From a virus (taxonomy: Duplodnaviria; Caudoviricetes): DNA of 57,728 nucleotides. Shown here piece after piece: positions 34,001 to 57,525 of this stretch. Position 1 is the stretch's first letter. Each line of letters begins with the position of its first letter. The stretch lies in the IMG/VR virus record IMGVR_UViG_3300025151_004898, positions 1 through 57,728 of that record; one strand, 5' to 3'. The position numbers and the translations under genes are program-made. The notes beneath the pieces were generated by a model, which worked only from the letters and a program-made list of their open reading frames with translations, was not told the origin of the DNA and did not search any database.

Positions 34001-34003
34001 GAA

Positions 34004-35065: not shown

Positions 35066-35066
35066 T

Positions 35067-40488: not shown

Positions 40489-40887
40489 ATGGAAGATATT
40501 TTTAATGGTCATGGAATAGAGATCGATATAAAAGAAAAGGATGATTTCTTAAAAATACGAGAAACACTAACTAGAATGGGAGTTTCTTCTAGAAAAGAAA
40601 ACAAACTATTCCAATCTTGTCATATATTACACAAGCGCGGTCGATATGCTATCATGCACTTCAAAGAGCTGTTTTTGATGGATGGTCTACAGTCTGATAT
40701 AACAGATAACGATCTGGAAAGAAGAAATACCATTGTTGGTCTGTTAGAAGAGTGGGAATTGTTGGAAATACTCGATGAAAATTACGATGATCTTCCAAAG
40801 GCAAGTTTAGCTCAGATAAAAATTATTCCTCACAAAGAAAAGGCGGAATGGGAATTGATTCCAAAATACCATATAGGTAAAAAATAA
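40489..40887 (+). CDS. regA: Translational repressor RegA
   Basis: DDFLKIRETLTRMGVSS, LFQSCHILHKRGRY, HFKELF, WELIPKY. Confidence 0.97.
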   Translation: MEDIFNGHGIEIDIKEKDDFLKIRETLTRMGVSSRKENKLFQSCHILHKRGRYAIMHFKELFLMDGLQSDITDNDLERRNTIVGLLEEWELLEILDENYDDLPKASLAQIKIIPHKEKAEWELIPKYHIGKK

Positions 40888-42348: not shown

Positions 42349-43180
42349 AAATGGTAATTACTTATTTTCCTCTAGTATAGAATTTCCGCAACCTGTTGAA
42401 ATTCATTTTGTTCGTATAGAGGAGTTTGACAATTCCGATGCATATAAGGTCTTAGTGCTCTCTAGTGAGAGCGTTCTTTCTCCAAACAGAGAGAGTCTTG
42501 CTTCTGTTGTAGAAAATGCTTCGCGTTATGATTTGATTTTGTGTGCAGATGATGAAATAGTTGATTCATGTCCTAATGCCATATTATTTCCATATGGTTC
42601 TACTTGGCTGAATCGTGGCGAACTTAATCACCCAGACGGGCTTGGATACTTTGATCCAGAAGTACCTACATTCCATAAGCGTGATAGAACAATAAATGAT
42701 GTTAGTTTTCTTGCGTCTTGGTATGATACGGATCGTCAGGGATACAATATAAGAAAAGAAATATGGGACAGACAGGAAGAAATTAATATTCCAATTATGT
42801 TCCATACAAGTAGAAAATCTTTCCTGAATGCCCCAAATCCATTACCCACAGGCGAAAAGGAAGATCTTTTTTATTCTATGTTCCACATCTGCATAGAAAA
42901 TCAATCCGTGCGACATTATTTCACCGAGAAAATTGTTGATGCATTTTTAACATATACAATTCCTGTGTATTGGGGATGTCCAAATATTGGCTCGTATTTT
43001 CATACAGAGGGCATGATTCTGTTTGATACGGTTGATGAACTTATACCAAAATTAAATGAATTGACATATGAATATTATTATGATAAACTAGCATTTGTGG
43101 AAAAAAATAGAAAGATCGCAGAGTCTTATGCCAACTTCGGTGAAAGAATAGCCGAAGCAATCAATACAAAATTAAATTGA
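42311..43180 (+). CDS. GT10 (fucosyltransferase-like) glycosyltransferase, second paralog
   Basis: FHICIEN....YFTEKIVDAF...TIPVYWG. Confidence 0.85.
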   Translation: MMNSTKSYKPIVKNGNYLFSSSIEFPQPVEIHFVRIEEFDNSDAYKVLVLSSESVLSPNRESLASVVENASRYDLILCADDEIVDSCPNAILFPYGSTWLNRGELNHPDGLGYFDPEVPTFHKRDRTINDVSFLASWYDTDRQGYNIRKEIWDRQEEINIPIMFHTSRKSFLNAPNPLPTGEKEDLFYSMFHICIENQSVRHYFTEKIVDAFLTYTIPVYWGCPNIGSYFHTEGMILFDTVDELIPKLNELTYEYYYDKLAFVEKNRKIAESYANFGERIAEAINTKLN

Positions 43181-43197
43181 TATTTAGTGGGAATTTG

Positions 43198-43221
43198 TCA
43201 ATGGAAGAAATTCTAAAACTA
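43198..43221 (+). repeat. 24-bp direct repeat, left copy
   Basis: TCAATGGAAGAAATTCTAAAACTA, identical to 44498-44521. Confidence 0.95.
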
Positions 43222-44535
43222 GTAGAAGAGTATATTACAAAAAAGAATAACGAGAAGACTTGGGTTCCCGGTAAAGATATAGTCCAATATGCTGGACCTT
43301 ATTTTGGTACTGAGGAGTACACCGAGTCAGTTAAGACTCTGTTGAATGGTTGGCTCGTTCTTGGTCAGTCTGGTATTAAGTTTGAAAGAAAGTTTCCTCG
43401 ATTGATGGGTAAGGATTTTGGTATTCTTACCAATAGTGGTAGTAGTTCCAATCTTCTTATGATGTCGGCTCTTACTTCGAAGCGTGGAGCCAATTTACCA
43501 AAGGGAACCAAGGTTATCACTCCCATTGCTGGGTTCCCCACAACAATCAATCCAATTTTTCAAGTGGGGTTCGAGCCAGCGTTTGTTGATATTGACATAG
43601 ACACATTGAACCTAAACTTAGATCAGGTAGAGGAGAGAGCAAAGGAGGGGTGTAAGGTTATTACGTTTGCTCACGTTCTTGGTAACCCACCAAACATGGA
43701 TCGACTCATGGAGATTGTTGATGAGTACGGGTTGATTCTTCTTGAGGACTGCTGTGATGCACTTGGTTCTACTTATCGAGGTAGACCTCTTGGTAGCTAT
43801 GGAGACTATGCATCATGCTCGTTCTACCCTGCCCACCATATCACTATGGGTGAGGGAGGTTTTGTTGCTTGTAATACAAAGAATCAGGAGATCGTTGCTA
43901 GGAGTTTCCGTGAGTGGGGTAGGGGATGTTACTGCGTTGGACAGAAGCAAGGTCTTCTCAAGAATGGTATGTGCAGAAATCGATTTTCTAACTGGTTACC
44001 CGCACTTCCTGATGAAATTTTTGACCATAAGTATGTCTATGATGAGATCGGATACAATCTAAAGCCTACAGATCTACAGGCAGCAATGGGACTTGTTCAA
44101 TTGGAAAGATTGCCTGAGATTATTGAGAAGAGAAAGTATAATCACAAGCGTCTTTGTGATATTTTCTCTCGGTACGAAGAGTACTTTATTATTCCGGAGA
44201 AGACCGATCATTCTGATCCAGCATGGTTTGCTTTTGCACTAACAATACGTGACGGCGCTCCATTTAAGAGAAGAGATATTATTGATTATCTAGAGAACAA
44301 TAAGATACAGACTCGTCCATATTTTGCTGGAAACATAATGTTGCAACCAGCTTACGAGGGATTGATGGATCAGAATGAGGTGATCGAGAAGTATCCCAAT
44401 GCTCGTAAGATTACAACTGATACGTTCTTTTTAGGAACAAGTCCAGTGATAACCGATAATCAGTTGGATTATATTTCTGACGTAATTGATGGATTTATCA
44501 ATGGAAGAAATTCTAAAACTAAAGGGGAGTTATAA
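43201..44535 (+). CDS. rfbH: CDP-4-keto-6-deoxy-glucose 3-dehydrase (RfbH/DdhC, E1)-like
   Basis: NSGSSSNL, FAHVLGNP, EDCCDALG, SFYPAHHITMGEGG (His at the usual Lys position), WGRGCYC, FDHKY, GYNLK; start moved to ATG 43201. Confidence 0.9.
   Translation: MEEILKLVEEYITKKNNEKTWVPGKDIVQYAGPYFGTEEYTESVKTLLNGWLVLGQSGIKFERKFPRLMGKDFGILTNSGSSSNLLMMSALTSKRGANLPKGTKVITPIAGFPTTINPIFQVGFEPAFVDIDIDTLNLNLDQVEERAKEGCKVITFAHVLGNPPNMDRLMEIVDEYGLILLEDCCDALGSTYRGRPLGSYGDYASCSFYPAHHITMGEGGFVACNTKNQEIVARSFREWGRGCYCVGQKQGLLKNGMCRNRFSNWLPALPDEIFDHKYVYDEIGYNLKPTDLQAAMGLVQLERLPEIIEKRKYNHKRLCDIFSRYEEYFIIPEKTDHSDPAWFAFALTIRDGAPFKRRDIIDYLENNKIQTRPYFAGNIMLQPAYEGLMDQNEVIEKYPNARKITTDTFFLGTSPVITDNQLDYISDVIDGFINGRNSKTKGEL
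44498..44521 (+). repeat. 24-bp direct repeat, right copy
   Basis: Identical to 43198-43221, offset 1300 bp. Confidence 0.95.
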
Positions 44536-44537
44536 TA

Positions 44538-45458
44538 ATGAAAATTACATTTTACAATAGATTCCATCGTGGAGATATACACTTTTCTAGATCGTTTGTA
44601 GAACACACAATTCGTTCTTTGCATAATATTCGTGATGATATTGAGTTTTCGTATATACATGAAAACTCTGCCGATACATTGTCAGATATTCCAAACCTGA
44701 TAGAAATTCCTAACCAAACTATTACTTCAGACATCTGGCCAGATAAATGTATGATGGTTGTTAATAGATCAAATGAAGATGGTGAATTGAGTCTTGGTAT
44801 TAATACGTGGATTGCATCCAATGATCATATATTCAGATCGAATTGTGGCTGTTGTTTCGCTGGAAATTTGGTTATGTGGCAGATGATCTGGAAAATTCTT
44901 GACAATGACCATGGTTTGAAAGTGATGCCCCCAGAAAACCCTCATGATCTATTACCAAAGATTGATTATGATCATTACAATCATTGTTCATTCGTTGATG
45001 ATCATATTAAAAATACAGATGAAAAATATAGGAAACGTATTTTTGTCTCAAATGGTCCTGTATTATCAGGCCAAGCGATTAATTTTGATTTCGATCCAAT
45101 TATAGGTAAGGTTGTAGAAGAGAACCCAGACTGTGTATTTTATTTAACAGACAGTACTAGTCTAGAGGCACCAAATATATACAGTACAAGGGGGCTTATC
45201 AATAAAGACGGATGTGATTTAAATGAGAATTCATACTTGAGCACGTTTTGTGATGTTATTATCGGCCGAGCTTCTGGACCATTTGCATATTCTTGTTGTC
45301 ATACTAACTTCATGGATGAAAATAAAAAGTTTTGTATATTTACGAACGGGGTAGAAGAGGGTGCATGGTTTACTGGTGGTAAATGTAACTATGAATGGTG
45401 CAAGAGTGAAGATATTGCACAGGTAGAAAATATTATTAGAACTAGTATAGGAGAATAA
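44538..45458 (+). CDS. Putative GT-B glycosyltransferase (GT9-like)
   Basis: N-terminal HRGD and C-terminal CDVIIGRASGP resemble GT9 GD and IGxDSGP motifs; cluster context. Confidence 0.45.
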   Translation: MKITFYNRFHRGDIHFSRSFVEHTIRSLHNIRDDIEFSYIHENSADTLSDIPNLIEIPNQTITSDIWPDKCMMVVNRSNEDGELSLGINTWIASNDHIFRSNCGCCFAGNLVMWQMIWKILDNDHGLKVMPPENPHDLLPKIDYDHYNHCSFVDDHIKNTDEKYRKRIFVSNGPVLSGQAINFDFDPIIGKVVEENPDCVFYLTDSTSLEAPNIYSTRGLINKDGCDLNENSYLSTFCDVIIGRASGPFAYSCCHTNFMDENKKFCIFTNGVEEGAWFTGGKCNYEWCKSEDIAQVENIIRTSIGE

Positions 45459-45459
45459 A

Positions 45460-45807
45460 ATGGAATTTACTAATACACTTGAGGATTTAATTAAAGATCA
45501 TGTTGATGCAATTTGTTCTGAAAGAGCCATGGTGGAGCTACCAGATAATCTTATTGCAACAGATAATTTGGCGGAAGTGATTGAGAAACTTGTTATTCTT
45601 CATATCCGAACATGGATGTTGGAGGACAGAGTTGGTGTTGCGACTGAGGATTCTGAGGTTGCGTCACTTAAAAAGAAAATTGATATTTGTTTCAAACAGA
45701 AGCGTCCCTCCTATATTGAAGCAATCAATAGAATGATTGATGATGCCATCATTAATCGCACACCTTTAGTGGAGGACAGCGTAAAGTCATATGAAGGACA
45801 TGAGTGA
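45460..45807 (+). CDS. Small helical protein, DUF4254-like
   Basis: LAEVIEKLVILHIRTWMLED...KKKID...R; SD AGGAG. Confidence 0.45.
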   Translation: MEFTNTLEDLIKDHVDAICSERAMVELPDNLIATDNLAEVIEKLVILHIRTWMLEDRVGVATEDSEVASLKKKIDICFKQKRPSYIEAINRMIDDAIINRTPLVEDSVKSYEGHE

Positions 45808-46561
45808 TTGTTTAGTGGTAGGAGATACATCTCAGATATCTCACTGCCTTCCTTCTTCGTTTTCTCGTGTTTCTTCTAGAAATTTTGATGCAGATTTAGT
45901 TGATGATTATGATAGAATCTTTATCTGTTTTGCGGAGCAGAGAACATTTGACAACTCATTAGACTTCATGGAAGTAAACTATGATTATACTTTGTCAATG
46001 ATCGATGATTTATTGCCCAAGTGTAATGAACTAGTTTTTTATTCGACTGCTATGTTATGGGAAAAACGTAAATCATATTCGATTGATGATGATTATGCAT
46101 ATGATAAACGAAATAATTATTTGGTTTCTAAACAGAAGATAACAGATGAGTTGAAGGGGAAGGATAGTGTGTTGATTCATTATCCATGCAATTTCAATTC
46201 AACTAAACGTAAAGATGGATATTTGTTTTCTAAATTGATTGATGCGTGTGCAGGTAATCCCATAATAACGGGCAATCTGGATTTTAATCGAGAGCTAGTA
46301 CATGCCTCTTATGTTGCGAATACCTCATTGTATTCGGACGAATCTAGGATTATTGCTCCTGGCTATCTTACAAATGTACGTAAGTATTTTCATGATGTCA
46401 TGGAACATTTTGGTGCTTCTCCCGAACTAATAACAGAAAATGCATCGGCAAAGTATATGCCTAAACCAAATTCTATGCACTCGGTTGTTGATAAAACGTA
46501 TGGGTATGATAGACTAGTTGAAGATACAATCATAGACATTGGGAGACATCTTAGTGATTAA
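45791..46561 (+). CDS. Degenerate NAD-dependent epimerase/reductase (SDR-like)
   Basis: LVVGDTSQI, FYST, YLVSK (YxxxK), NFNS, RELVH; start may be 45800. Confidence 0.6.
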   Translation: MKDMSDCLVVGDTSQISHCLPSSFSRVSSRNFDADLVDDYDRIFICFAEQRTFDNSLDFMEVNYDYTLSMIDDLLPKCNELVFYSTAMLWEKRKSYSIDDDYAYDKRNNYLVSKQKITDELKGKDSVLIHYPCNFNSTKRKDGYLFSKLIDACAGNPIITGNLDFNRELVHASYVANTSLYSDESRIIAPGYLTNVRKYFHDVMEHFGASPELITENASAKYMPKPNSMHSVVDKTYGYDRLVEDTIIDIGRHLSD

Positions 46562-47705
46562 TCTTGTAGAAGATACAATCTGTTCTGACGATATACAGTC
46601 ATTGATATCGTGGTTAGAAACCAATCCTCGTTTGACAAAGGGTGAGCAGACAACTTTATTTGAACAAGAGTGGTCGGCGTTTACTGGAGTTAAGCATTCG
46701 GTTTTTGTTAATTCTGGTTCTTCTGCTAATCTTGGGATTATATCTGCCTTGGTTCAGTCTAATAAGTTAAAGAACAAAAAGGTTCTTGTGCCAGCAGTAT
46801 CTTGGTCAACTACAGTTGCTCCTGTAATACAGTGTGGACTTACACCAATTCTGGTTGATGCTGACGAGAATAATTTGGGTATTTGTATTGCTGATCTGGA
46901 AAGAAAACTCAATGAGCATGAGCCAGCGGCGTGTGTGCTTGTCCATGTACTTGGATTTCCTTGTCACATGAAAGAGATTATGTCTCTTTGTGAATATCAC
47001 GATACGCTTGTGATTGAGGACAGTTGTGAAAGTATTGGTTCTGTTTATCAGGGTAAGAAAACTGGGTGCTTTGGACTAGCATCTTCGTTTTCGTTTTACT
47101 TTGGTCACCATATGTCCACTATTGAGGGTGGGATGATATGCACGAATGATGATGAATTTTATGATTTACTAAAATCAATTCGTTCTCATGGTTGGGACAG
47201 GGACATCCATCCCACCAAACAAAAAGAACTTCGTCAAAAATATAATGTTGATGATTTTACTGCGCTGTATACATTCTATCACGATGGATTCAATCTAAGG
47301 TCAACCGATCTCCAAGCATTTATTGGTAGAAGGCAGTTAACTAAACTGTCCCACATAATTTCCAACAGACAACGAAATTTTTATTACTATGATACTATGT
47401 CCAATCAAGAGTGGAAACCCAAACCTGTTGGTGAAGTCATTTCTAATTTTGCATATCCAATAATTTCTAAGAACAAGAAACTTCTGATTTCAAATCTGAA
47501 GGAAGCAGGAGTGGAGTGTAGACCTCTTGTGTGTGGGTCCATTGGAAAGCAGCCATTTTGGGTGAATAAATATGGTGAATGCTCATTACCAGTGGCTGAT
47601 AGAGTTCATAAGTACGGTCTATATGTACCAAACCATCCGGGAATGTCATTGCATGACGTAGAAAAAGTTTGTGATGTTATTAATAAAACAGAAGGATGTG
47701 ACTAG
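46554..47705 (+). CDS. ColD-like NDP-4-keto-6-deoxyhexose 3-dehydratase (DegT family)
   Basis: VNSGSSANL, AVSWSTT, EDSCES, SFYFGHHMSTIEGG (His at the usual Lys position), RSHGW, GFNLR; GTG start with GGAG. Confidence 0.8.
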   Translation: MINLVEDTICSDDIQSLISWLETNPRLTKGEQTTLFEQEWSAFTGVKHSVFVNSGSSANLGIISALVQSNKLKNKKVLVPAVSWSTTVAPVIQCGLTPILVDADENNLGICIADLERKLNEHEPAACVLVHVLGFPCHMKEIMSLCEYHDTLVIEDSCESIGSVYQGKKTGCFGLASSFSFYFGHHMSTIEGGMICTNDDEFYDLLKSIRSHGWDRDIHPTKQKELRQKYNVDDFTALYTFYHDGFNLRSTDLQAFIGRRQLTKLSHIISNRQRNFYYYDTMSNQEWKPKPVGEVISNFAYPIISKNKKLLISNLKEAGVECRPLVCGSIGKQPFWVNKYGECSLPVADRVHKYGLYVPNHPGMSLHDVEKVCDVINKTEGCD

Positions 47706-47708
47706 ATT

Positions 47709-48662
47709 ATGAAAATTGTATACGTTACTGGATGTTTGGGCTTTATTGGTTCGTATGTAACTAGGATGTGTCTTGATCGTGGTTGGTATGTCAAGGGTGT
47801 TGACAGCATGACATATGCTGCTAATAATAATCTGCTCGACGAATTCCAGCAGTATGAAAATTTTTCATTCGTCCACTGCGACATAAATGAATTGAAGTTT
47901 TTGTATGATTGTGATTACATCATCAATACTGCCGCAGAAACACATGTAGGTAACTCTATTGCAAACAGTGATGATTTTGTAGCGTCGAACATCAACGGTG
48001 TTCATAATATTTTGGAGTTGATTAAAAACTATCGCCAAGAACATAGTAAGGTTCCAACCCTTTTACATTTTAGCACAGATGAGGTTTATGGTGATATTGT
48101 AGATGGGGCACATACAGAAACTGATGTGCTAAAGCCATCCAATCCATACTCCGCAACCAAAGCAGCAGCGGATATGTTGGTATTAGCATGGGCAAGAACA
48201 TATGATATTCCATATGTCATATTGCGTCCCACCAACAACTATGGTATCGGTCAGTATGTTGAAAAACTAATACCGAAAACCTGTAAGTTTCTTAAATTGG
48301 GAAGAAAGATTCCATTACACAACAATGGCACTCCAATACGAAATTGGTTACATGCCGAGGACACAGCGAATGCGGTAATTAAGATTATCGAAGCGGAAGT
48401 GACTAATGAAATTTACAATATCGCTGGTGGATTTGAACAAAGTAATATGGATACTGTTTGTAAACTTATTAGCGTGTTGACAGACGGTGCAGATTACGAT
48501 ATACTAGACTACGTTGATACCTCGTTCTCAAGGGTCGGTCAGGATTTGAGATATGCTCTCGATGACTCCAAACTAAGATCACTAGGATGGGAACCCAGCA
48601 AAGTTTTTGATGAAGAAATAATCGATATAGTAAATTACTATAAAAATAAGTTTATTTGGTGA
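47709..48662 (+). CDS. NDP-glucose 4,6-dehydratase (RmlB-like)
   Basis: VTGCLGFIG, AAETHV, STDEVYG, PYSATK, NNYG, EKLIP, YALD. Confidence 0.88.
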   Translation: MKIVYVTGCLGFIGSYVTRMCLDRGWYVKGVDSMTYAANNNLLDEFQQYENFSFVHCDINELKFLYDCDYIINTAAETHVGNSIANSDDFVASNINGVHNILELIKNYRQEHSKVPTLLHFSTDEVYGDIVDGAHTETDVLKPSNPYSATKAAADMLVLAWARTYDIPYVILRPTNNYGIGQYVEKLIPKTCKFLKLGRKIPLHNNGTPIRNWLHAEDTANAVIKIIEAEVTNEIYNIAGGFEQSNMDTVCKLISVLTDGADYDILDYVDTSFSRVGQDLRYALDDSKLRSLGWEPSKVFDEEIIDIVNYYKNKFIW

Positions 48663-48666
48663 CCAC

Positions 48667-49692
48667 ATGTCAATTGATTTAAAAATTCTAGACTGCACTC
48701 TAAGAGATGGTGGTTATGTTAATAGTTTTTCGTTTGGTGAAGAAAACATAAGAAAGATTGTTGATGGATTAACTTCCAGTGGAGTAGACATTATTGAGAT
48801 TGGTTTTCTGAAAGACGGAAACCACGGTGCAAACCAAACACTATTCAATAGAGTTTCAGAAGCAGAAAAGTTTACTACAGACAATCAAGAATATTGTTTG
48901 ATGATTAGACCAGACTGGTATGACATTGAACAGTTGGAGTCTTGCACGGGAAACATTGCCAATCTTCGTTTTGCTTTTCATTATACAGATATGGAACTAG
49001 CATTAGACCACGCAAAGTTTGCTAGAGAACTCGGTTACAATATTTTCTTTAACCCTGTGTCTATTTTAAATTATAGCAAAGCAGAACTAAAAGATATGTT
49101 AACTCGTTTGAATGAGTTCTCTCCTGCCGGTGTTAGCATAGTAGATACATTTGGTTCTCTCGTTCCGTCTGATCTTCACGATATGTTTTCAACATTCAAT
49201 GAGTTTTTGGACGATCATATTGGTCTGGGGTTACATCTACACGAAAACCTCTCCTTATCGATGTCACTTGCCACGCACTTCATTGAGTTAATGAAAAACT
49301 CTATACGAACAGCATACCTTGACTCCTCCGTTCTTGGTATGGGGAGAGTTCCCGGTAACCTATGCACTGAATTACTACTACCATATGTGAACCGAGTAGT
49401 TCAAGATAAATATGACTTAAGTGAAATCTACAAACTAATAGATGATCCCATTTCAACTATTAGAGAAACTGTGTCATGGGGGTATATGCCAGCATATGCA
49501 ATCACAGGGTTCCTTAACATCCACAGATCATATGCAGAACATTTGATGGATAAACGAGATATATCTCTTGAATCTATTAATATTATTTTAGACAAAGTGG
49601 CAAGAAGCGGGAATGGTGAAAACTTTACTGAATCTCTGGTGGACGAGATCTATGAGGAATGTATGAATGAGAAAAACTGTCAAAGTATCTGA
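48667..49692 (+). CDS. HMGL-like (DRE-TIM) aldolase
   Basis: ILDCTLRDGG, IIEIGF, VDTFG, LHLHENL, GMGRVPGN. Confidence 0.85.
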   Translation: MSIDLKILDCTLRDGGYVNSFSFGEENIRKIVDGLTSSGVDIIEIGFLKDGNHGANQTLFNRVSEAEKFTTDNQEYCLMIRPDWYDIEQLESCTGNIANLRFAFHYTDMELALDHAKFARELGYNIFFNPVSILNYSKAELKDMLTRLNEFSPAGVSIVDTFGSLVPSDLHDMFSTFNEFLDDHIGLGLHLHENLSLSMSLATHFIELMKNSIRTAYLDSSVLGMGRVPGNLCTELLLPYVNRVVQDKYDLSEIYKLIDDPISTIRETVSWGYMPAYAITGFLNIHRSYAEHLMDKRDISLESINIILDKVARSGNGENFTESLVDEIYEECMNEKNCQSI

Positions 49693-51457
49693 TTATATTG
49701 TTGACTTTTTTGTAAACAACAATATTAATAAATGTTTCGTCGTCACCGGAGGCGGTGCTATGCACATGAATGATAGTTTCGGACACAGTAAAGATGTTCA
49801 GTGTATTTACAACCACCACGAACAAGCGTCTGCTATGTCCGCTGAAGGATACACTAGGGTGTCGGGCAACCCCGCCATTGTATCTGTTACATCCGGACCC
49901 GGAACAACGAACGCACTAACTGGTGTTCTGGGTGCTTGGTTGGACTCTATTCCTATGGTGATTTTATCTGGTCAAATGAATTTTGACACTACGATTGAGT
50001 CAACACCAGTTCCACTTCGACAACTTGGATTCCAAGAATTCAACATTATCGATAGTGTTAAACCAATGACAAAATATGCAGAGATGGTAGAAGATCCCAG
50101 ATACATTGCCTATCATTTGGAAAAAGCACTGTTCTTATCACAGAACGGCAGGAAGGGCCCGGTGTGGTTGGACATTCCGCTCAATGTTCAGTCTGCTGTT
50201 ATTGATGTAGATGATCTCATTCATTATAAATCCCCTAGTTTATTTTCGGGTGATTTTGATATGGATTTAATTTTTGATAAACTTAATCAGGCAAAGAAAC
50301 CAGTTTTGTTTGCAGGGTATGGTGTAAGAATGTCTGATTCATATAAAACCTTCTTGAAGGTTGTGTCTAAACTTAAGATACCAGTCGTGACTGAATGGAA
50401 CTCGAATGATTTAATTTGGTCAGATCACGACTATTATGCAGGTCGAGCAGGAACAATAGGAGACAGAGGAGGAAATTTTGTGGTTCAAAATTCTGACTTA
50501 CTTCTTTGTGTTGGTTGTCAATTTTCTATAAGACAATTGAGTTATCGCTGGGAAAATTTTGCTAAGGGTGCATATAAGATAGCAGTAGATGTAGATGAGA
50601 ATGAACTCGTTAAACCAATTGTCAAGATTGATTATCCAATACACTCTGATGTTGGAGTCTTTTTGGATTCTGTTCTTCTCAGCGACAATTCCTCCGTTCA
50701 TGATTATTCATCTAAGTGGAATACATGGACAAGAGACATCAACAACAAATATCCTGTGGTTTCTGATAGACACCTTTCACAGAAGTCTCCTCTGAGTATC
50801 TACTCTTTTATGAAATCTTTATCTGAATGTCTTACCGAGGACGATGTTGTTGTTATCGCAAATGGTGCCGCTTGTGTCGCTGGTCTCCAAGCGATCAACA
50901 TAAAAGAGGGGCAACGGGTGTTCACAAATGCAGGGGCATCCAGTATGGGCTACGGCATCGCTGCGGCAATTGGTTCTTGTTACGCCAAAGAAAAGGTAAT
51001 CTGCATCGAGGGCGATGGTTCTATTCAGATGAATCTACAAGAACTACAGACTATCGCACACAATAATCTTAATGTAAAAATTATTTGGATTAACAACGAT
51101 GGGTATCAGTCCATCAAACAAACACAGGCATCTATGTTCGAGGCAGAAAAACGAGGTTATTGTGGGGCAAACTGCGACAGTGGAATTGGATTCCCTTCGG
51201 CGGAAAAGATAGCAAAAGCATATGGGTTGAATTTTTATAAGATAGATCATGTAGATGATATGAAATCTACCCTAGAAATATTTTACGATTCTGATGGACC
51301 AGCAATATGTGAGGTTGTCACTATCCCTGATGAAAAGTTTGAACCAAAGTTGCAGTCCAAACTCCTAAACGATGGTACATTCCAAACACCATCTCTTGAG
51401 GACATGTATCCGTTTCTGTCTAGAGATGAAATGGAAGAAAACATCTTCATTCCATGA
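49667..51457 (+). CDS. Thiamine-diphosphate enzyme, acetolactate synthase-like (YerE-like)
   Basis: HHEQ, TSGPGTTN, GPVWLDIP, SMGYG, GDGSIQMNLQEL...INNDGY (GDG..NN ThDP motif). Confidence 0.9.
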   Translation: MRKTVKVSDYIVDFFVNNNINKCFVVTGGGAMHMNDSFGHSKDVQCIYNHHEQASAMSAEGYTRVSGNPAIVSVTSGPGTTNALTGVLGAWLDSIPMVILSGQMNFDTTIESTPVPLRQLGFQEFNIIDSVKPMTKYAEMVEDPRYIAYHLEKALFLSQNGRKGPVWLDIPLNVQSAVIDVDDLIHYKSPSLFSGDFDMDLIFDKLNQAKKPVLFAGYGVRMSDSYKTFLKVVSKLKIPVVTEWNSNDLIWSDHDYYAGRAGTIGDRGGNFVVQNSDLLLCVGCQFSIRQLSYRWENFAKGAYKIAVDVDENELVKPIVKIDYPIHSDVGVFLDSVLLSDNSSVHDYSSKWNTWTRDINNKYPVVSDRHLSQKSPLSIYSFMKSLSECLTEDDVVVIANGAACVAGLQAINIKEGQRVFTNAGASSMGYGIAAAIGSCYAKEKVICIEGDGSIQMNLQELQTIAHNNLNVKIIWINNDGYQSIKQTQASMFEAEKRGYCGANCDSGIGFPSAEKIAKAYGLNFYKIDHVDDMKSTLEIFYDSDGPAICEVVTIPDEKFEPKLQSKLLNDGTFQTPSLEDMYPFLSRDEMEENIFIP

Positions 51458-52794
51458 GAAAAGATATAGACAATGATGTAAGATTGTTTTTCCCAAACAA
51501 GACTAGGTTATTGCTCTTTGGGGGGAACTGTTTACTTGCAAAACGATTATATGAAATCATTAAACGAGATCTATTTGTCAGAAGAATAGACTACAGCGAA
51601 AACAACTCCGTTACGAAAATAAAAAGTCTATTAGAATATCAGGATGGGGATACTCTGATTTTCACTAGTGAGTTATTGCTTTTTTTATCAGATGAGGAAT
51701 ACTTAAATTTTACGGAAACTCTTGTAGACATAAAAACAAACACTAATACTAAATTGGTTTTTATTTCTATTACCGATCCTCTCCACATGGAAAAGCAGGG
51801 TGATAGTTATCTGTTAAAAAATATGAGGTGTGATGAAACCTATGTATCCCGTGTGGATCGCATAACAGATACACTCAACGATACAGATCTTATCTATGAG
51901 GTTCCTTCTTACTACACATATGTAGAATCCAATTTACAAATCAATCCCGTAACATTTGAAGGTAACTTAATCACACCAGAGAAACACGCTAAAGCATCTT
52001 ATTTTTTCTTTAGTGATGATATCATATCTGATGTGGTAAAGAAAATAAATGATGTGGGGTGGACAACCCCCTATTGGGATTCACCAGATAAAATGACACC
52101 AAGTGAATTCATGCTCAAGTTAAATACACCTGATTCTGAATACTCAAAGGTTGTTAATCAAACAAAGTGTTCATTGACAATACTATATCGTAAAGATTCA
52201 TATGATATGTCTAACGGTGGAACTGTAGCAAACTTTAGAGTTAATCTTGGTAAGTCTCTATGTAAGAAAATACCATTCTCTATCAGAGAAAAACTCGATA
52301 TGATTATCCCTGTTCCAGAGACGGGTAAGTATTATGCACAGGGATTGGCATCAGAACTTAATAAAAATTATGTCGAAGCGATATACAAAAAGGTAGAAGT
52401 TGGTAGGAGTTTTGATGTCTCTGATGTAAGTAAAAGAAACAAAATAATTAAATCTAAACTGGGTTTACATAAAAATATGGTGAAGGGGAAAACAATAGGA
52501 ATAGTGGATGAGGCAATATTCACAGGTTCGACTTTAAAGATTGTAAGCGACATGCTGAGAGAAGCGAAGGCAAGAGAAGTTTATTTTTTCATACCAAGTC
52601 CCACCTGTAAGAGTAGATGTAAATACAACATGCAACCCGATAGAGAACTTCTTTTACAAAAAATAAATGAAAAGGATTTAATTTCCTACTTCAACGTGGA
52701 TGGTATATTTTTTCAAGACAGTGAAGCATATGATAGTTCCATATCAAAGACAAACTACACATGCTCCGAGTGTTTTCATAAAGAGCAATTATGA
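51454..52794 (+). CDS. Fusion of a degenerate Rossmann-like N-domain and a PurF-type phosphoribosyltransferase domain (no glutaminase domain)
   Basis: N-terminal LLFGGNCLL; C-half RVNLG..L, IPVPETG, IVDEAIFTGST, CKSRC, CSECF. Confidence 0.7.
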   Translation: MRKDIDNDVRLFFPNKTRLLLFGGNCLLAKRLYEIIKRDLFVRRIDYSENNSVTKIKSLLEYQDGDTLIFTSELLLFLSDEEYLNFTETLVDIKTNTNTKLVFISITDPLHMEKQGDSYLLKNMRCDETYVSRVDRITDTLNDTDLIYEVPSYYTYVESNLQINPVTFEGNLITPEKHAKASYFFFSDDIISDVVKKINDVGWTTPYWDSPDKMTPSEFMLKLNTPDSEYSKVVNQTKCSLTILYRKDSYDMSNGGTVANFRVNLGKSLCKKIPFSIREKLDMIIPVPETGKYYAQGLASELNKNYVEAIYKKVEVGRSFDVSDVSKRNKIIKSKLGLHKNMVKGKTIGIVDEAIFTGSTLKIVSDMLREAKAREVYFFIPSPTCKSRCKYNMQPDRELLLQKINEKDLISYFNVDGIFFQDSEAYDSSISKTNYTCSECFHKEQL

Positions 52795-53381
52795 ATTTAT
52801 TGAACGATAATTACTACAGGCATGTTATTTTTGATTTAGACGGAACCCTAATTAATTCCGCTCCCTCTATATTGAATTCTATGGGGTCAGCGATAAAGGA
52901 AAGTGGATATACCCCCCTGCTAAGTTTAGACTCGTCTTTAATTGGGCCACCGCTATATGAGACAATTGCAAATGTGACGGGGCTCACCGAGTCATGTGAA
53001 CTGAATTTAATTGTTGATAGATTTAAAAAGCAATACGACGAGAAAGATTGTTTAGATGTAACTTGTTTTTCTGGTGCTTCATCTATTTTGGAAAGAATTA
53101 AGTTGGACAGCAATCTAATCTTAGCAACAAATAAAAGATTAATTCCAACAGAAAAAATATTGAAACACTTGGAGTGGGATGATATGTTTAACTCCATCTA
53201 CACGCTCGATACATTCGATCCCCCCTTGAAAAATAAAACAGAACTTCTAAGAAAAGTTATTTCAGAGGAGGAGATAAATACAGATGAGGCGGTATACATT
53301 GGTGACAGATTAGATGACGAATTTGCCGCAAAAGAAAATAAAATTTCATTTATTATGGTTGATTGGAGTTATTCGATATGA
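52791..53381 (+). CDS. HAD-family phosphatase
   Basis: FDLDGTL, ATNK, K, YIGDRLDD. Confidence 0.9.
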   Translation: MNLLNDNYYRHVIFDLDGTLINSAPSILNSMGSAIKESGYTPLLSLDSSLIGPPLYETIANVTGLTESCELNLIVDRFKKQYDEKDCLDVTCFSGASSILERIKLDSNLILATNKRLIPTEKILKHLEWDDMFNSIYTLDTFDPPLKNKTELLRKVISEEEINTDEAVYIGDRLDDEFAAKENKISFIMVDWSYSI

Positions 53382-54229
53382 TAGTACAAATTACTCTTAC
53401 CCGAGACGAATTGTTTTTAATTAAAGAGATGTTACCACAGTGGCAAAAGTACGCAGATGCTTTTGTTTTCATGGTTGATAGATCCGTTGATGGGACATAT
53501 GAGTTCTTAATGGAAAATAAAGAAAAGTACAATATTCTCAGTGTTCTACAAACTAACTGGGAGATGGATGGGTTAACTGTAGAAACTGATGAGAGGCAAA
53601 GATTATATGATGAAGCATTCAAACACAGTGGAAAAATCATATGTCTTGATACTGATGAATATATTGATGGTAATGTCACCAAGGAACAACTGGAAGGTGT
53701 CTTGGAACAAAATAAAAATTCTTTGTTTATGGCACCATGGATTCAATATACAGGAAAAAATAATATAAGAGTGGACGGTCCTTGGAGAACTAATTACAAG
53801 GATAGAATTGGTTCTTATGAAAAGAGAGGTGAGTTCGCAGACGCAGTACGTCACTCGGAACATATGCCATTGAGCGACAATACATACAGCTTTCAATATC
53901 CACAATTATTCATATCACATCTTCAGTGGTTAGATAAAGTTACCGTTGCTGTTAAGCAATATTATTGGAAGATTTCTGATTATGTTGCTAATCATGAGCA
54001 TGGAGCAGAAATAATTCCCTCTTACTTATATGATCAGTCCGTCAATAATTTTGAATGGGAATATGCAGAAATAGATTTTCCTTTGTTAGTTGACGAGCAC
54101 ATTTATGATAAGAATGATTTGGAAAATAGTTTTAAGTATCAATATATTAAAAATAATGTCGAGAAGTATGATATTCCAAACATGAATGATTGGGGACTAG
54201 GTATTCACTCTGGGGAGCTGTTCAAATGA
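53378..54229 (+). CDS. GT2-like glycosyltransferase
   Basis: TRDE, VDRSVDGT, CLDTDE motifs; start moved to ATG 53378. Confidence 0.75.
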   Translation: MIVQITLTRDELFLIKEMLPQWQKYADAFVFMVDRSVDGTYEFLMENKEKYNILSVLQTNWEMDGLTVETDERQRLYDEAFKHSGKIICLDTDEYIDGNVTKEQLEGVLEQNKNSLFMAPWIQYTGKNNIRVDGPWRTNYKDRIGSYEKRGEFADAVRHSEHMPLSDNTYSFQYPQLFISHLQWLDKVTVAVKQYYWKISDYVANHEHGAEIIPSYLYDQSVNNFEWEYAEIDFPLLVDEHIYDKNDLENSFKYQYIKNNVEKYDIPNMNDWGLGIHSGELFK

Positions 54230-55014
54230 GAGTTTTAGTAACAGGAGCGAACGGGTATGTTGCTAGGAGTTTAATTCAAAATTTTTCCAACAAATATGAT
54301 ATGGTCGGGATATCAAGAGATGATTTTGATTTGACTGATACAAGAGCTACGTGTGAGTGGTTCGCAGATAATCATTTTGATGTAGTGCTGCACACCGCAA
54401 TTGTTGGTGGGAATAGATTGAATCAAGACACGCATGATGTTACTGATCAGAATTTGTTGATGTATTATAACTTACTGGGTAACAGAGAAAGCTATGGTAA
54501 GTTTATAAATTTTGGTTCTGGTGCAGAACAATTTCAACCACATTCTCCTTATGGAATAAGTAAAAAAATAATAGCCGATTCTGTTGCTAATACAGAAGAT
54601 TTTTATAACATACGCATATTTGGTGTTTTCGATGAGAATGAATTGGATCGACGTTTTATTCTTTCGAATATGCTTCGTTATCTCAATAAAGAGTCAATGA
54701 TTATTCATGAAAATAAGTTGATGGATTTTTTCTACATGAAGGATCTGGTTTCGGTAGTGGAGTATTACATCGAACACTCTCAGTTATCCAAGCAGGTTAA
54801 TTGTTGTTATAATGAAAAATATACTCTTTACTCCATAGCTCAGATGATAAATCAGTTGAGTGATTATGACGTTCCTATTGAGGTTCCGAGTAAGAGTGTG
54901 AGTAGCTATTACTGTGGAGAGTCTATTTTACCTCCTATAAATATTATTGGATTGCAGTCCGGAATACTAAATATGTTTGAACAATTACAAAAAGGATATA
55001 GTTATTATGAGTAA
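54226..55014 (+). CDS. NAD-dependent epimerase/4-reductase (extended SDR)
   Basis: VLVTGANGYVA, FGSGAE, YGISK, RIFGVF; start moved to ATG 54226. Confidence 0.88.
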   Translation: MRVLVTGANGYVARSLIQNFSNKYDMVGISRDDFDLTDTRATCEWFADNHFDVVLHTAIVGGNRLNQDTHDVTDQNLLMYYNLLGNRESYGKFINFGSGAEQFQPHSPYGISKKIIADSVANTEDFYNIRIFGVFDENELDRRFILSNMLRYLNKESMIIHENKLMDFFYMKDLVSVVEYYIEHSQLSKQVNCCYNEKYTLYSIAQMINQLSDYDVPIEVPSKSVSSYYCGESILPPINIIGLQSGILNMFEQLQKGYSYYE

Positions 55015-56257
55015 ACCCACAGTTACATTGTGCATGATTGTAAAGGATGAGACACATGTTATTGAGCAGTGTCTTCGCTCCATGGCAAAATATGTGGATA
55101 GATATGACATCACTGATACTGGATCGACTGATGGAACACCAGAACTTATTGAGAAGGTAATGAATGAACTTGGAGTTCCCGGTAAGGTGTACCTTTCTGA
55201 CTGGAAGGGGTTTGGTGATCATGCAAATCGAATTGGTTCTAGAACAGAGGCATTCCATAATGCAGAAGCTGGTGGTGCGGACTATGCGTGGGTGATTGAT
55301 GCTGATGATTACATTGAGGGTGAGTTTCAGTATCCTGAAAACATGACATCTGATGGGTATACTCTATTAATCAAGCGGGGTGATTTCAGTTGGTGGAGGA
55401 ATCAGATTTTCCGGTTGGATCTTGGTTGGCGATATGTTGGCGTTCTTCATGAATATGCAGATGCAACCAAGAAGAGTCCTGCTGCATTTGCAAAGATAGA
55501 GGGGAACTATCACGTTACCGCCAGAACAGAGGGAGCAAGGAACGTTGGTATTACTCCTTTTGAGAAATATGCTAGGGACGCAGAATTATTGGAGAAAGCG
55601 TTAGAGGATGAGCCAGACAATGCTAGGTATCAATTCTATCTTGGGCAGAGTTATTTTGATTCTCAGCAGTGGGAAAAATCAAAGGAAGCATATAGGAAGC
55701 GGGTCGAGATGGGTGGTTGGCCAGAAGAGGTTTTCTATTCCCAGTTCCGAGTTGGTTTGTTGTGTGGGTTCACTAAGGATCCATTTGAGGTTATTGTCAA
55801 GGAATTGATAGAAGCATATAACATTCGCCCAACTCGTGCTGAACCGTTGGTTGAATTGTCGAGGATTTATAGGATGACAGATAAACCTTCTGCTGCATAC
55901 ATCTTTGCAAAACTTGCCGCCGAAACACCATATCCTGCGGATGATATTCTGTTTATAAGTGATGATGTTTATAGGTTTGGTGCTTTGGATGAGCTTGGTG
56001 CTGTTGCATATTATGCAGGGAGACCTCTCGAAGGATATAACGCATGTAAGATGCTCGTAGAAGAAAATAGAGCACCAGCAGACCATGCGGAAAGAGTCAA
56101 GACAAATCTAAAGCAGTATGAGGATGTTATTCAACAAATGGCACCAGCAAATCAACCAGAAGTCATACACAAAAAGCTAGATACTCTAAAGGAAAAACAA
56201 AAAGAGCTAAAAACTTCAGCTAAAAATTTTAAGAAAAAGAAAGTAAAAAGTAGGTAA
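55007..56257 (+). CDS. GT2 glycosyltransferase with C-terminal TPR repeats
   Basis: LCMIVKDE, DTGSTDGT, IDADD, GVLHE, then TPR-like RYQFYLGQSY, PTRAEPL; start moved to ATG 55007. Confidence 0.9.
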   Translation: MSKPTVTLCMIVKDETHVIEQCLRSMAKYVDRYDITDTGSTDGTPELIEKVMNELGVPGKVYLSDWKGFGDHANRIGSRTEAFHNAEAGGADYAWVIDADDYIEGEFQYPENMTSDGYTLLIKRGDFSWWRNQIFRLDLGWRYVGVLHEYADATKKSPAAFAKIEGNYHVTARTEGARNVGITPFEKYARDAELLEKALEDEPDNARYQFYLGQSYFDSQQWEKSKEAYRKRVEMGGWPEEVFYSQFRVGLLCGFTKDPFEVIVKELIEAYNIRPTRAEPLVELSRIYRMTDKPSAAYIFAKLAAETPYPADDILFISDDVYRFGALDELGAVAYYAGRPLEGYNACKMLVEENRAPADHAERVKTNLKQYEDVIQQMAPANQPEVIHKKLDTLKEKQKELKTSAKNFKKKKVKSR

Positions 56258-57525
56258 TGTCCGACATAGAAACTGAGTCATACATTATACTGGAGACTAT
56301 CCACAACGAACTGCAAGAGGGTACTGTTGTAGAGAAAGTTGAGGATTCTGTACGTGCAGATTATAATGTTGTACTTGGTGTCGGTCTGGATTCCGTTAAA
56401 TTTATAAGTGAAAATGGAAATGTTTTTAAATTATCTGGATCAAAACAAAAGATTCTATCCATAGCAGAGCCTCTAATATCAAATAAAAAGGAGGCCGCTC
56501 CTTCGCCTGTTATCAATATTCAAGAAGTTCGGGGAGTTGACGGTGCAAGAGGAAAACGTGGTTTGCAGGGACCGCCTGGTCCACAGGGTCCACAGGGTCC
56601 ACAGGGCGAGATTGGACCACAGGGCCCTCGTGGTGACCGTGGAGAACTTGGGGAATCTGGTTCTGATGGTGCATCTGGTGTCGGAGTTGGGTTTGTAGAT
56701 AATTTAGATCAGGATACAATGCTTGTTCGTCTAACGGACAATACTGTTTTTGAAGTCAAGCTACCCAAAGGGGCCCCCGGTCTAAACGGGGTTCCCGGTG
56801 TAGCTGGTCCAACTGGTGATAGTGGTTCGGACGGTAAAGATGGTAAAGATGGTAAAGATGGTGAACGGGGAATTGATGGTAAGCCGGGTAAGGACGGTAA
56901 GTCGGGTAAGGACGGTAAGCCGGGTAATGACGGTAAACCGGGTAACGCGGGTAAACCGGGCAAAGATGGTAAACCGGGGAAAGACGGCAAGAATGGTCTT
57001 GATGGTAAGGATGGTAAGGACGGGGATATTGGTCCCCAAGGGATACGTGGTGAACGCGGACCAGCTGGTGAGAAAGGTGAGCCGGGTGTTGATGGGAAGG
57101 ATGGCAATGATGGTTCCTCTGGTGTTGTTAGCGCAAGATTCCCACTGAAGTATGATGAAACAAAACAAGAATTAACTTTTGATTCTAAATCACTAGAAAA
57201 GGTTCTTTCAATACCAAATGTGGATCCCATGGCTATTAATAATTTACTTACAGCTATTGGTGGTGGTGGTGCTGTTGGAATTAAGCACGATGGTAGGATG
57301 TTAATTAAATCTGTTTCCGACATACAGGTGAAGCGAGGATTGGATGCTGTTCGTCGAGGTAAGAATGTAGATTTAGAATTGGATGTTGATGTACCTTTTA
57401 GTTTTTCTGGAACTACAATATCAGGACAAAAAAATGAATCTGAATTAGGTACTGGTGACTTTTGGTTTAATACCACTTTAGGCAAATTGTTTTTTAGAAT
57501 TGATGCTAGTTGGATAGAAGTATGA
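56257..57525 (+). CDS. Collagen-like (Gly-X-Y) fibre protein
   Basis: Two Gly-X-Y tracts (GPQ, GKD, GKP); C-terminal [13 protein letters not shown]. Confidence 0.88.
56770..57120 (+). repeat. 9/18-bp periodic repeats encoding collagen triplets
   Basis: GGTAAAGAT x3 and GGTAAG(C/T)CG-GGTAAGGAC units. Confidence 0.85.

Follow-up and report, generated by a model that had tools for sequence, protein, structure and literature searches.

The IMG/VR virus record IMGVR_UViG_3300025151_004898, whose entire 57,728 bases are referred to here as the window, covers part of a T4-like myovirus genome, about 31% of it as estimated by CheckV. PHROG and Pfam matches place in it gp32, baseplate wedge proteins, gp25, gp15, the large terminase (TerL), sheath, portal, prohead protease, scaffold and gp23, together with UvsY, UvsW, gp46/47, gp45, gp44, gp62 and RegA. 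The gp23 protein is at most 56% identical to that of any deposited phage, with Pelagibacter phage Mosig and marine cyanomyoviruses as the best matches. Directly after regA begins a glycan operon of 17 co-directional open reading frames (ORFs) on the + strand (from about 40887 to at least 57525, the record ending at 57728). Adjacent ORFs share up to 40 nt or lie no more than 4 nt apart, and their G+C content equals that of the remainder of the phage. Within this operon, a thiamine diphosphate (ThDP)-dependent enzyme is encoded beside an aldolase and several sugar-modifying enzymes. On balance, the operon probably builds a glycan carrying a C-acyl-branched deoxyhexose, formed by aldolase-fed branching at the ThDP enzyme. 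The genes on which this reading leans are as follows (NDP, nucleoside diphosphate; SDR, short-chain dehydrogenase/reductase; PRT, phosphoribosyltransferase):

43177..44535, + strand: E1/RfbH-type pyridoxamine phosphate (PMP)-dependent NDP-4-keto-6-deoxyhexose 3-dehydrase (NF011936 470 bits, cut-off 423)
46539..47705, + strand: ColD-like sugar 3-dehydratase of DegT fold, His replacing Lys (2gms 207 bits)
47709..48662, + strand: RmlB-like NDP-hexose 4,6-dehydratase (TIGR01181 290.7 bits, cut-off 365)
48667..49692, + strand: HMGL-type (DmpG/BphI-like) class II pyruvate aldolase (PF00682 74.3 bits, cut-off 29)
49667..51457, + strand: YerE/JanthE-like ThDP-dependent carboligase, the proposed branching enzyme (three ThDP domains)
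51454..52794, + strand: SDR-like/RmlD-like domain fused to a PurF-type PRT (PF00156 34.9 bits; AlphaFold2 model)
52791..53381, + strand: HAD-family phosphatase, COG0546/PGP-like (HAD_2 88.8 bits)
54190..55014, + strand: extended SDR, partner of the ThDP enzyme (PF01370 66 bits; RmlD_sub_bind 40.8)

An earlier, sequence-only reading of the interval 47709-55014 had proposed a branched-chain sugar pathway made up of a 4,6-dehydratase, an HMGL-like aldolase overlapping a ThDP gene, the ThDP enzyme itself, an E1-like enzyme and two further SDRs. The first three are present, with all three ThDP domains and an aldolase-ThDP gene overlap of 26 nt. The E1-like enzyme is encoded as well but lies outside that interval, at 43177-44535, and the two SDRs resolve into one stand-alone protein (54190-55014) and the N-terminal half of the fusion at 51454-52794. 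Beyond that list, the interval holds the PRT-domain fusion, the HAD phosphatase and a GT-A-like glycosyltransferase gene.

The ThDP enzyme (ORF 49667) carries TPP_N, TPP_M and TPP_C domains. Its HHEQ and EGDGS...NNDGY motifs align with those of JanthE, PpYerE and acetohydroxyacid synthase (AHAS); the catalytic Glu is kept, and the ThDP motif is the canonical GDG...NDG, whereas JanthE has CDG. Homologs are annotated at JGI as 'acetolactate synthase-1/2/3 large subunit', and the sequence-only reading had warned that an ilvB label would be misleading. The scores bear this out: the best AHAS model, TIGR00118, gives 302 bits against a cut-off of 538, and the best 25 of 54 NCBIfam matches all fall under their cut-offs. 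Among PDB entries, JanthE (8rph) scores 380 bits, 5ahk 256, E. coli AHAS I 224 and plant AHAS about 197, and a profile built from 24 family members widens the gap (JanthE 507, 5ahk 333, AHAS I 300 bits). Entry 5ahk, titled 'acetolactate synthase II' in the PDB and taken here to be PpYerE, is the sole YerE homolog compared and is a distant relative of the window enzyme. Of the solved structures, JanthE from Janthinobacterium sp. HH01 (8rph, 8rpi, 8rpj) is the nearest to ORF 49667 along its whole length, and the two share a C-terminal tail (residues 564-591) that aligns with neither 5ahk nor AHAS I. JanthE is characterised as a ketone-accepting, YerE-like lyase with a broad range of C3-C6 2-oxo-acid donors, among which excerpts of two reports name pyruvate, 2-oxobutanoate, 2-oxovalerate, 4-methyl-2-oxovalerate and 4-hydroxy-2-oxovalerate (PMC12188165, PMC12247030).

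Relatives of the ThDP enzyme were collected from IMG/VR by an alignment-based scan, which returned 254 stretches encoding them, and 78 loci were kept; a single-protein IMG/VR scan with the enzyme gave nothing. A tblastn search of deposited phages gave matches of at most 30% identity, mostly on bacterial contigs filed as phage. In bacterial genomes, a scan picked up 29 loci with enzymes 42-51% identical, in Smithella, Armatimonadota, Clostridia, Lachnospiraceae, Treponema and other groups. A FastTree phylogeny of 99 rows comprised the window enzyme, 59 non-identical viral and 29 bacterial sequences, five E. coli enzymes and five in-genome paralogs; all 80 metagenome loci, sequences below 520 or above 700 residues, exact duplicates and loci L030, L033 and L037-L039 were left out. 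The 89 sugar-cluster enzymes form one clade (support 100), and IlvB, IlvI, Gcl and the in-genome paralogs form the other (support 97). The same two clades, with supports of 100 and 98, were returned by IQ-TREE (LG+G4, quick search) for 57 representative rows. The sequence-only reading had looked to a phylogeny to tell the enzyme from IlvB, and the outcome favours that reading, ORF 49667 standing apart from IlvB at a support of 100 in both trees. In phmmer searches with the window enzyme, members of its clade score 404-993 bits and all others at most 224.5 bits; since JanthE, at 380 bits, falls just under the 404-bit floor, it is a neighbour of the clade and not a member shown by the trees. Three bacterial genomes with a 45-51% identical copy also encode separate IlvB-type paralogs, which are only 27-30% identical. 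No AHAS small regulatory subunit (IlvN/IlvH) domain was found in the scanned window ORFs, in contrast to the ilvI-ilvH pair of E. coli. ORF 49667 is not IlvB. Calling it YerE-like seems warranted by its similarity to JanthE, its gene context and its exclusion from AHAS.

The aldolase scores 94 bits with NF006049 and 83 bits with TIGR03217, both below the cut-offs, and matches PDB entries 3dxi (84.7 bits), 4lrs (60 bits) and 1nvm (59.6 bits). Its metal-site motifs DxTLRDG (DCTLRDG) and HxH (HLHENLSL) are kept and align with DmpG and 4lrs. Judged by sequence, it belongs to an uncharacterised 3dxi subtype in which the metal ligands are kept. The sequence-only reading had suggested that this aldolase supplies a 2-oxo acid longer than pyruvate. 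In the erwiniose cluster of Pectobacterium atrosepticum, ErwE is encoded beside the BphI-like pyruvate aldolase ErwI, the acetaldehyde dehydrogenase ErwJ and the reductase ErwF, and ErwE rejects pyruvate and uses 4-hydroxy-2-oxo acids (Steitz et al. 2022, PMC9306805). The caryophyllose ThDP enzyme MMAR_2332 of Mycobacterium marinum likewise adjoins MMAR_2331, which is of the aldolase/citrate-lyase family (PMC9306805). Donor supply by an aldolase is thus a known bacterial mechanism, having been published for both sugars. In the erwiniose cluster as in the window, a BphI/DmpG (HMGL)-type aldolase adjoins a ThDP carboligase in a 3,6-dideoxyhexose cluster with a reductase; there the aldolase product is the donor and the branch exceeds two carbons, and the same logic is proposed for the window. 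The window differs from the erwiniose cluster in residing in a phage, in its 3dxi-subtype aldolase with Tyr for the DmpG His, in its dTDP-type and not CDP-type dehydratase, in having no ErwJ-like dehydrogenase and no E3, and in the added SDR-like/PurF-like fusion and HAD phosphatase. The likeness to ErwE is one of description and context.

The distribution of aldolases among the relatives bears on the same question. An HMGL aldolase homolog abuts the ThDP gene in all eight viral loci of the window's lineage. A single clade of 16 rows (support 92) takes in every HMGL-linked ThDP enzyme from viruses and bacteria alike, and the majority of the HpcH-linked viral enzymes group in a second clade (support 100); the 57-row tree holds seven changes of aldolase state. 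Aldolase class tracks the ThDP clade, which is the pattern expected of donor-specific co-evolution, and shared ancestry also contributes to it. Because this tracking extends across phages and bacteria, it further supports the aldolase as the supplier of the donor. The earlier suggestion is therefore supported both by the erwiniose and caryophyllose precedent and by the tracking, and the donor would be a longer 2-oxo acid.

The acceptor side of the pathway resembles that of yersiniose A. The E1 enzyme (ORF 43177) scores 370 bits against Yersinia E1 (3bcx) over its full length. Its motif YPAHHITMGEGG places His at the position of the aminotransferase Lys, and the AHH within it aligns with the AHH of Yersinia E1 and with the AKH of the H220K mutant entry 3bb8. 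The CxC...C cysteines (CYC and a later Cys), which presumably include those that ligate the [2Fe-2S] cluster, also align with Yersinia E1, and the 'EDCCDALGS' motif is kept. This His-for-Lys E1, and the pairing of a ThDP enzyme of the AHAS-like superfamily with a reductase, are shared with the yersiniose A pathway of Yersinia pseudotuberculosis (E1/E3, YerE, YerF). YerE, however, uses pyruvate and makes a C2 branch, whereas the window enzyme is coupled to an aldolase, and E3 and a cytidylyltransferase were not found in the window. The RmlB-like ORF 47709 scores 69 bits with the CDP-glucose dehydratase model and 50 bits with Gmd. The ColD-like ORF 46539 has ColD/WbdK (2gms) as its best PDB match, its GHHMST aligning with SHHIAT of ColD, and the window thus encodes two different 3-dehydratases, E1 and the ColD-like enzyme.

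Two side observations concern the ColD-like enzyme. The window has no GDP-mannose 4,6-dehydratase, yet it encodes a ColD-like dehydratase that would need the product of one. A true GDP-mannose 4,6-dehydratase is encoded in two of the viral loci, L045 (14378-15430) and L053 (15608-16660), at 471-472 bits, adjoining a glycosyltransferase family 2 (GT2) gene fused to tetratricopeptide repeats (TPR).

The counts over the 78 viral loci were obtained by tblastn with the window proteins, all matches being on the ThDP strand. The partner SDR occurs in 72 loci; in 43 its start is no further than 150 bp from the ThDP stop, and in 70 it lies at most 3.5 kb downstream. The RmlB-like dehydratase has a match of any kind in 71 loci and one of at least 45% identity in 59, and it lies within 5 kb upstream of the ThDP gene in 56; for E1 the corresponding numbers are 61 for any match and 49 at 38% identity or more. 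An aldolase is present in 49 loci (8 HMGL, 41 HpcH/HpaI). The gp44-gp62-regA flank of the window recurs in five or six loci, and T4-type Gp23 was found in six of the eight large records searched (four rated 100% complete, three of those with terminal repeats). It was not found in five IMG/VR records sharing the window's layout, which are fragments of 5-34% completeness. Separately, L067, a viral record of 358 kb rated 89% complete, carries the ThDP-SDR module. It has no match to T4 Gp23 and none to capsids of nucleocytoplasmic large DNA viruses (NCLDV), and could represent a large virus of another kind. The Capsid_NCLDV search, run on five large related records, gave no match in any of them, nor for its control, and so carries no weight.

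Viral loci vary in what lies between the dehydratase and ThDP genes, as can be seen from the Pfam annotation of four of them. The window and L045 have the HMGL aldolase cassette; L053 has an HpcH/HpaI aldolase and a small HAD-like ORF; L057 has an HpcH aldolase, a short-chain SDR and a dehydroquinate synthase (DHQS)-like enzyme related to AroB; and L100 has a DJ-1/PfpI protein, a cupin and a small HAD-like ORF. In pairing an HpcH/HpaI aldolase with the ThDP enzyme, the second viral group (L053, L057) resembles the caryophyllose cluster, whose MMAR_2331 is of that class, whereas the aldolase of the window is of the HMGL class; the mycobacterial likeness is one of reported class, not of sequence. 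The AroB-related DHQS-like gene and short-chain SDR also recur beside the ThDP enzyme in viral and bacterial loci (L057 9004-10020, TIGR04425 320 bits; L003 14039-15097; L019 12485-13591), which points to a route, so far unrecognised, by which a sugar phosphate would be turned into the donor. In L053, a T4-like phage locus, a methyltransferase and a sulfotransferase (11500-13481) lie between the ThDP enzyme and its SDR, which hints at a methylated or sulfated branched sugar.

Similar gene sets are found in bacteria. Among the 29 bacterial loci, 14 have an HMGL aldolase, 13 a DegT/E1-like enzyme, 14 a 4,6-dehydratase and 4 a HAD protein. The Smithella locus encodes an NTP-transferase, dehydratase, E1-like enzyme, GT2, epimerase and GT87 on one strand and the ThDP enzyme, HMGL aldolase, short SDR, DHQS-like enzyme and GtrA on the other. 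The Butyrivibrio locus encodes the ThDP enzyme, short SDR, DHQS-like enzyme, FGGY kinase, HMGL aldolase, GT2, epimerase, NTP-transferase, HAD protein and a dehydratase. Both are cell-envelope sugar clusters. A further parallel lies in the prasinoviruses. The ORFs of OtV5 include, in the portion of the genome report drawn on here, 035f (glycosyltransferase), 037f ('acetolactate synthase'), 039f (3-dehydroquinate synthase), 041r (epimerase/dehydratase), 042f (aminotransferase) and 043f (dTDP-glucose 4,6-dehydratase) (PMC2386258), and excerpts of a report on Micromonas viruses list acetaldehyde dehydrogenase, acetolactate synthase and aminotransferase among 'amino-acid synthesis' genes (PMC5454428). 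Compared by gene names alone, the prasinovirus set resembles L057 and the erwiniose cluster.

What the genes encode, their conserved order, the separation of the ThDP enzyme from IlvB and the way aldolase type varies with ThDP clade are all observed; from them we infer a route whose chemical steps, product, donor acid, nucleotide carrier, E1 electron source and glycan acceptor would be as follows. A host NDP-hexose, taken from the host because the window has no nucleotidyltransferase, would be converted to the NDP-4-keto-6-deoxyhexose by the RmlB-like dehydratase (47709). The E1-type PMP/Fe-S dehydrase (43177) would then take off the 3-hydroxyl with electrons from a host reductase, giving the NDP-4-keto-3,6-dideoxyhexose. 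In parallel, the HMGL-type aldolase (48667) would join pyruvate and an aldehyde to a 4-hydroxy-2-oxo acid. The ThDP enzyme (49667) would decarboxylate this acid and add the resulting acyl-anion equivalent to the C4 ketone of the sugar, leaving a tertiary alcohol with a side chain longer than C2. The partner SDR (54190), a presumed YerF/ErwF-like reductase of the side chain or of C4, would reduce the side-chain ketone, and about six glycosyltransferases would assemble the glycan. By analogy with the published erwiniose and caryophyllose scheme, the branched-sugar chemistry is of a known kind.

Several points weigh against this route. The dehydratase 47709 is of the dTDP-glucose type, while the characterised E1 uses a CDP-sugar. 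An E3 reductase was not found, there being no Fer2, FAD_binding_6 or NAD_binding_1 match in the window ORFs, and NAD_binding_1 is present in none of three related phage records rated 100% complete; a nucleotidyltransferase, lacking in the window, is present in one of three such records. The aldolase misses the equivalog cut-offs (TIGR03217, 83 against 286 bits) and has RDGGY where DmpG has RDGSH, so that Tyr replaces His beside the metal site, as it does in 3dxi; the His following RDG in DmpG presumably has a catalytic role. The acylating aldehyde dehydrogenase that would partner the aldolase (DmpF/BphJ/ErwJ) was not found in scans of the window ORFs. Since the eight HMGL-bearing viral loci are one lineage, their synteny counts as a single observation. 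PpYerE (5ahk) scores barely over AHAS (256 against 224 bits), and the rows of the trees do not include YerE, ErwE, MMAR_2332 or JanthE. We know of no glycan from the window's phage or from any related phage. Lastly, JanthE takes pyruvate too, according to the excerpted report (PMC12188165), so the product of the aldolase need not be the donor.

This last point leads to an alternative in which pyruvate is the donor, the ThDP enzyme builds a C2 branch as in yersiniose and the aldolase serves a separate keto-deoxy acid sugar or a later aldol extension. Besides the pyruvate activity of the closest solved relative, it can draw on the 29 of 78 viral loci that keep the ThDP-SDR pair without a detectable aldolase and on the HAD genes near the aldolase, which would also fit a KDO/KDN-like route through a phosphorylated intermediate. 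We consider it unlikely, however, given the overlap between the aldolase and ThDP genes, their adjacency in all eight HMGL-bearing loci of the lineage and the match of aldolase type to ThDP clade; the order 'branch first, aldol later' is moreover ruled out for ErwE, which rejects pyruvate (PMC9306805). Equally improbable in our view is that the acceptor is not the E1 product, and that the enzyme branches NDP-4-keto-6-deoxyhexose directly or a GDP-4-keto-3,6-dideoxymannose made by the ColD-like enzyme. The presence of two 3-dehydratases and the missing E3 would fit this, as would the true GDP-mannose 4,6-dehydratases of L045 and L053, the GT10-like transferases, which point to GDP-L-sugar donors, and the fact that just 49 of 78 loci have an E1 match reaching 38% identity. 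On the other side, many loci without E1 are cut contigs, and it is the RmlB-like dehydratase, not the GDP-mannose enzyme, that neighbours the aldolase and ThDP genes (56 of 78 within 5 kb upstream); the characterised YerE-like sugar enzymes all use a 3,6-dideoxy-4-keto acceptor, as stated in part of a 2025 review (PMC12247030). That the gene is an ordinary IlvB/AlsS-like auxiliary metabolic gene for branched-chain amino acids or acetoin that happens to stand beside sugar genes, as the JGI labels and the amino-acid heading in prasinovirus papers (PMC5454428, in part) would have it, is very improbable, given that ORF 49667 scores below the AHAS cut-offs, has no small subunit, falls in a clade apart from IlvB and is co-directional and overlapping within a sugar operon across phages and bacteria.

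Two further genes of the operon encode the fusion (ORF 51454) and the HAD phosphatase (ORF 52791). By sequence, the fusion shows only a PurF-like PRT domain (purF TIGR01134, 95 bits, residues 229-443). An AlphaFold2 model from a 32-sequence alignment (pLDDT 87, pTM 0.79) has two domains, with which an ESM Atlas model agrees. The C-terminal domain (about 245-446) matches the PRT domain of PurF (Foldseek E 1e-13; VIA Z 24.3, rmsd 2.4 over 199 residues), and residues 15-243 match NDP-sugar epimerases, dehydratases and RmlD, which are extended SDRs (VIA Z 14-15.5). All 32 sequences share the motif for phosphoribosyl pyrophosphate (PRPP), D352 E353 ... T357 G358 x T360, unchanged, and 31-32 of them have cysteines 239, 389 and 440. 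Since the SDR-like domain lacks YxxxK and its glycine motif is degenerate, it may serve to bind a sugar nucleotide rather than to catalyse. Relatives of the fusion, which form a family of 135 proteins at E of 1e-5 or less, all metagenomic and without informative names, keep the PRT domain and vary in their N-terminal parts. Homologs occur in 8 of the 78 viral loci, the same 8 that have the HMGL aldolase, and in none of the 29 bacterial loci. The best PDB match of the HAD protein is 3mc1 (62 bits); HAD_2-type homologs are present in 4 of 78 viral loci, and small HAD-like ORFs lie beside the ThDP, aldolase or PRT gene in 21.

PRPP-dependent ribofuranosyltransferases have been described, in the sections of two reports consulted, as a PRT (gPRT) paired with a HAD-type phosphatase (PRP) (PMC11127046, PMC11294581). 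The window shares with this system (prototype 7shg) the combination of a PRPP-binding transferase and a HAD phosphatase within a glycan cluster. Its PRT differs in being a PurF homolog (Z 24) with no detectable gPRT homology and with an SDR-like N-terminal partner, and its HAD protein in being a separate gene of a generic PGP type; 7shg was not among the matches listed in PDB sequence searches with the PRT and the HAD protein or in fold searches with the PRT. As a tentative suggestion, the likeliest role of the fusion and the HAD phosphatase is PRPP-dependent ribosylation of a sugar or glycan, in which the fusion would add a PRPP-derived ribosyl group and the phosphatase would strip its phosphate. 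Ribosyl addition followed by phosphate removal is the least certain step of the proposed route. The SDR-like/PurF-like fusion is an enzyme architecture of which no description was found in the databases and literature consulted.

The remaining genes of the operon are mostly glycosyltransferases (GT), and the last encodes a collagen-like protein:

40887..41528, + strand: unknown family, 213 residues, first gene after regA (no Pfam/NCBIfam match)
41521..42348, + strand: GT10-like (fucosyltransferase-type) glycosyltransferase (PF00852 40 bits, cut-off 23.9)
42311..43180, + strand: second GT10-like glycosyltransferase (PF00852 23.9 bits, at the cut-off)
44538..45458, + strand: viral GT9-like (GT-B) glycosyltransferase (ESM Atlas lead; no Pfam match)
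45460..45807, + strand: ORF of 115 residues (weak DUF4254 match only, E 0.0013; homolog in 1 of 78 viral loci)
45791..46561, + strand: ORF of 256 residues (no family match; homolog in 0 of 78 viral loci)
53363..54229, + strand: GT-A-like glycosyltransferase with a weak GT2 signature (Glyco_tranf_2_4 E 0.027)
54977..56257, + strand: GT2 glycosyltransferase fused to TPR repeats (PF00535 27.2 bits and TPR matches)
56257..57525, + strand: collagen-like repeat protein (PF01391 98.6 bits)

Homologs of ORF 40887 hold the same position in 3 of the 78 viral loci (tblastn), and those of the two GT10-like genes occur in 28 each. ORF 44538, just after E1, was considered as an E3 and rejected, since it resembles a GT9-type transferase; in the ESM Atlas it falls among viral clusters (0.98 by features) and has a TM score of 0.66 to Glyco_transf_9 clusters, which is a lead only. 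ORF 45791-46561 was considered as a truncated SDR like that of L053 and rejected, having no similarity to it. GT-A-like homologs of ORF 53363 are found in 20 of 78 loci (L045 26.9 bits, L053 27.8 bits). The GT2-TPR protein (ORF 54977), with homologs in 16 of 78 loci, reaches 28.6 bits with the SunS-family model TIGR04195, under its cut-off, and is a candidate protein-directed transferase.

Scans of the window ORFs found no nucleotidyltransferase, E3-type reductase, AHAS small subunit, Wzx/Wzy or polyprenyl-phosphate transferase. The many soluble transferases, the GT2-TPR protein and the lack of lipid-carrier or export genes argue for a soluble glycan acceptor. In the window the collagen-like gene directly follows GT2-TPR, with no intervening ORF. 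In six related loci, GT2-TPR is followed by an ORF of 133-154 residues and then by a collagen-like ORF; every collagen-like ORF of the 78 loci falls in these six, of which L075 and L110 hold a second one further downstream, and four loci with sufficient downstream sequence have none. This gene order fits glycosylation of a virion fibre, or mere conserved gene order. The collagen-like protein (56257) could accordingly be read as a glycan acceptor or fibre, and modification of host lipopolysaccharide (LPS) or glycosylation of DNA are possible alternative fates of the glycan.

Bacterial envelopes are the only known source of acyl-branched sugars such as yersiniose, erwiniose and caryophyllose. 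An in-silico survey of more than 200 YerE-like clusters was reportedly made by Krug in 2024. By title or abstract, no phage-encoded branched-sugar ThDP pathway was found in the literature on YerE, yersiniose or branched-chain sugars with phages, and a 2025 review, in the part drawn on here, calls viruses still unexplored for YerE-like enzymes (PMC12247030). So far as this literature search shows, novelty lies in the viral setting and how widespread it is, in the swappable cassettes and in the SDR-like/PurF-like fusion. If the chemistry is as proposed, phages would make rare tertiary-alcohol sugars whose side chains vary by lineage, which would matter for virion glycosylation, the masking of receptors and recognition between phage and host. 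Asymmetric synthesis would also gain, in the viral enzymes, a large and so far unused source of ketone-accepting ThDP carboligases, and counts of viral 'amino-acid' auxiliary metabolic genes that include such genes would need correction.

Taken further, these observations could be joined into one picture, which as a whole we regard as doubtful, in which aquatic T4-like phages carry a modular sugar-inventing kit. Its core of dehydratase, E1, YerE-like lyase and reductase would be fixed, and a swappable donor cassette (HMGL; HpcH; DHQS-like enzyme with short SDR; DJ-1 with cupin) would diversify the side chain. In the window's lineage, the fusion and the HAD phosphatase would ribosylate the sugar from PRPP, and GT2-TPR and other transferases would load the glycan onto the phage's own collagen-like fibre, not onto host LPS. 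The prasinovirus 'acetolactate synthase' beside DHQ synthase, aminotransferase and dTDP-glucose dehydratase would be the same module. Such a kit would clothe phages in a variable glycan coat, much as giant viruses bear glycosylated fibrils.

A DNA search of 47709-55014 against deposited phages gave no match. Near-identical contigs are present in four other marine metagenome runs; these are short pieces, none of which bridges a gene junction, and there is no RNA run among the 24 runs listed for the window's sequence. Elsewhere in the window, three adjacent genes between gp46/47 and the clamp genes (33251-36656) encode a PALP-like pyridoxal phosphate enzyme (23.6 bits, below the cut-off), a glutamine-synthetase-like protein (Gln-synt_C 81.8 bits) and a 542-residue protein whose C-terminus is an N6/N4 DNA methylase domain, and this trio could be a DNA base-hypermodification module. 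Inside the replication module, a SET-domain protein of 117 residues (39432-39785; PF00856, 34.2 bits) is encoded between gp44 and a Cpn10-like ORF (39778-40071). At 2816-3253 on the - strand, a protein with a TnsA-like endonuclease N-terminal domain (84.8 bits), which adjoins a T4 baseplate gene on the opposite strand, may be a homing or mobile endonuclease.

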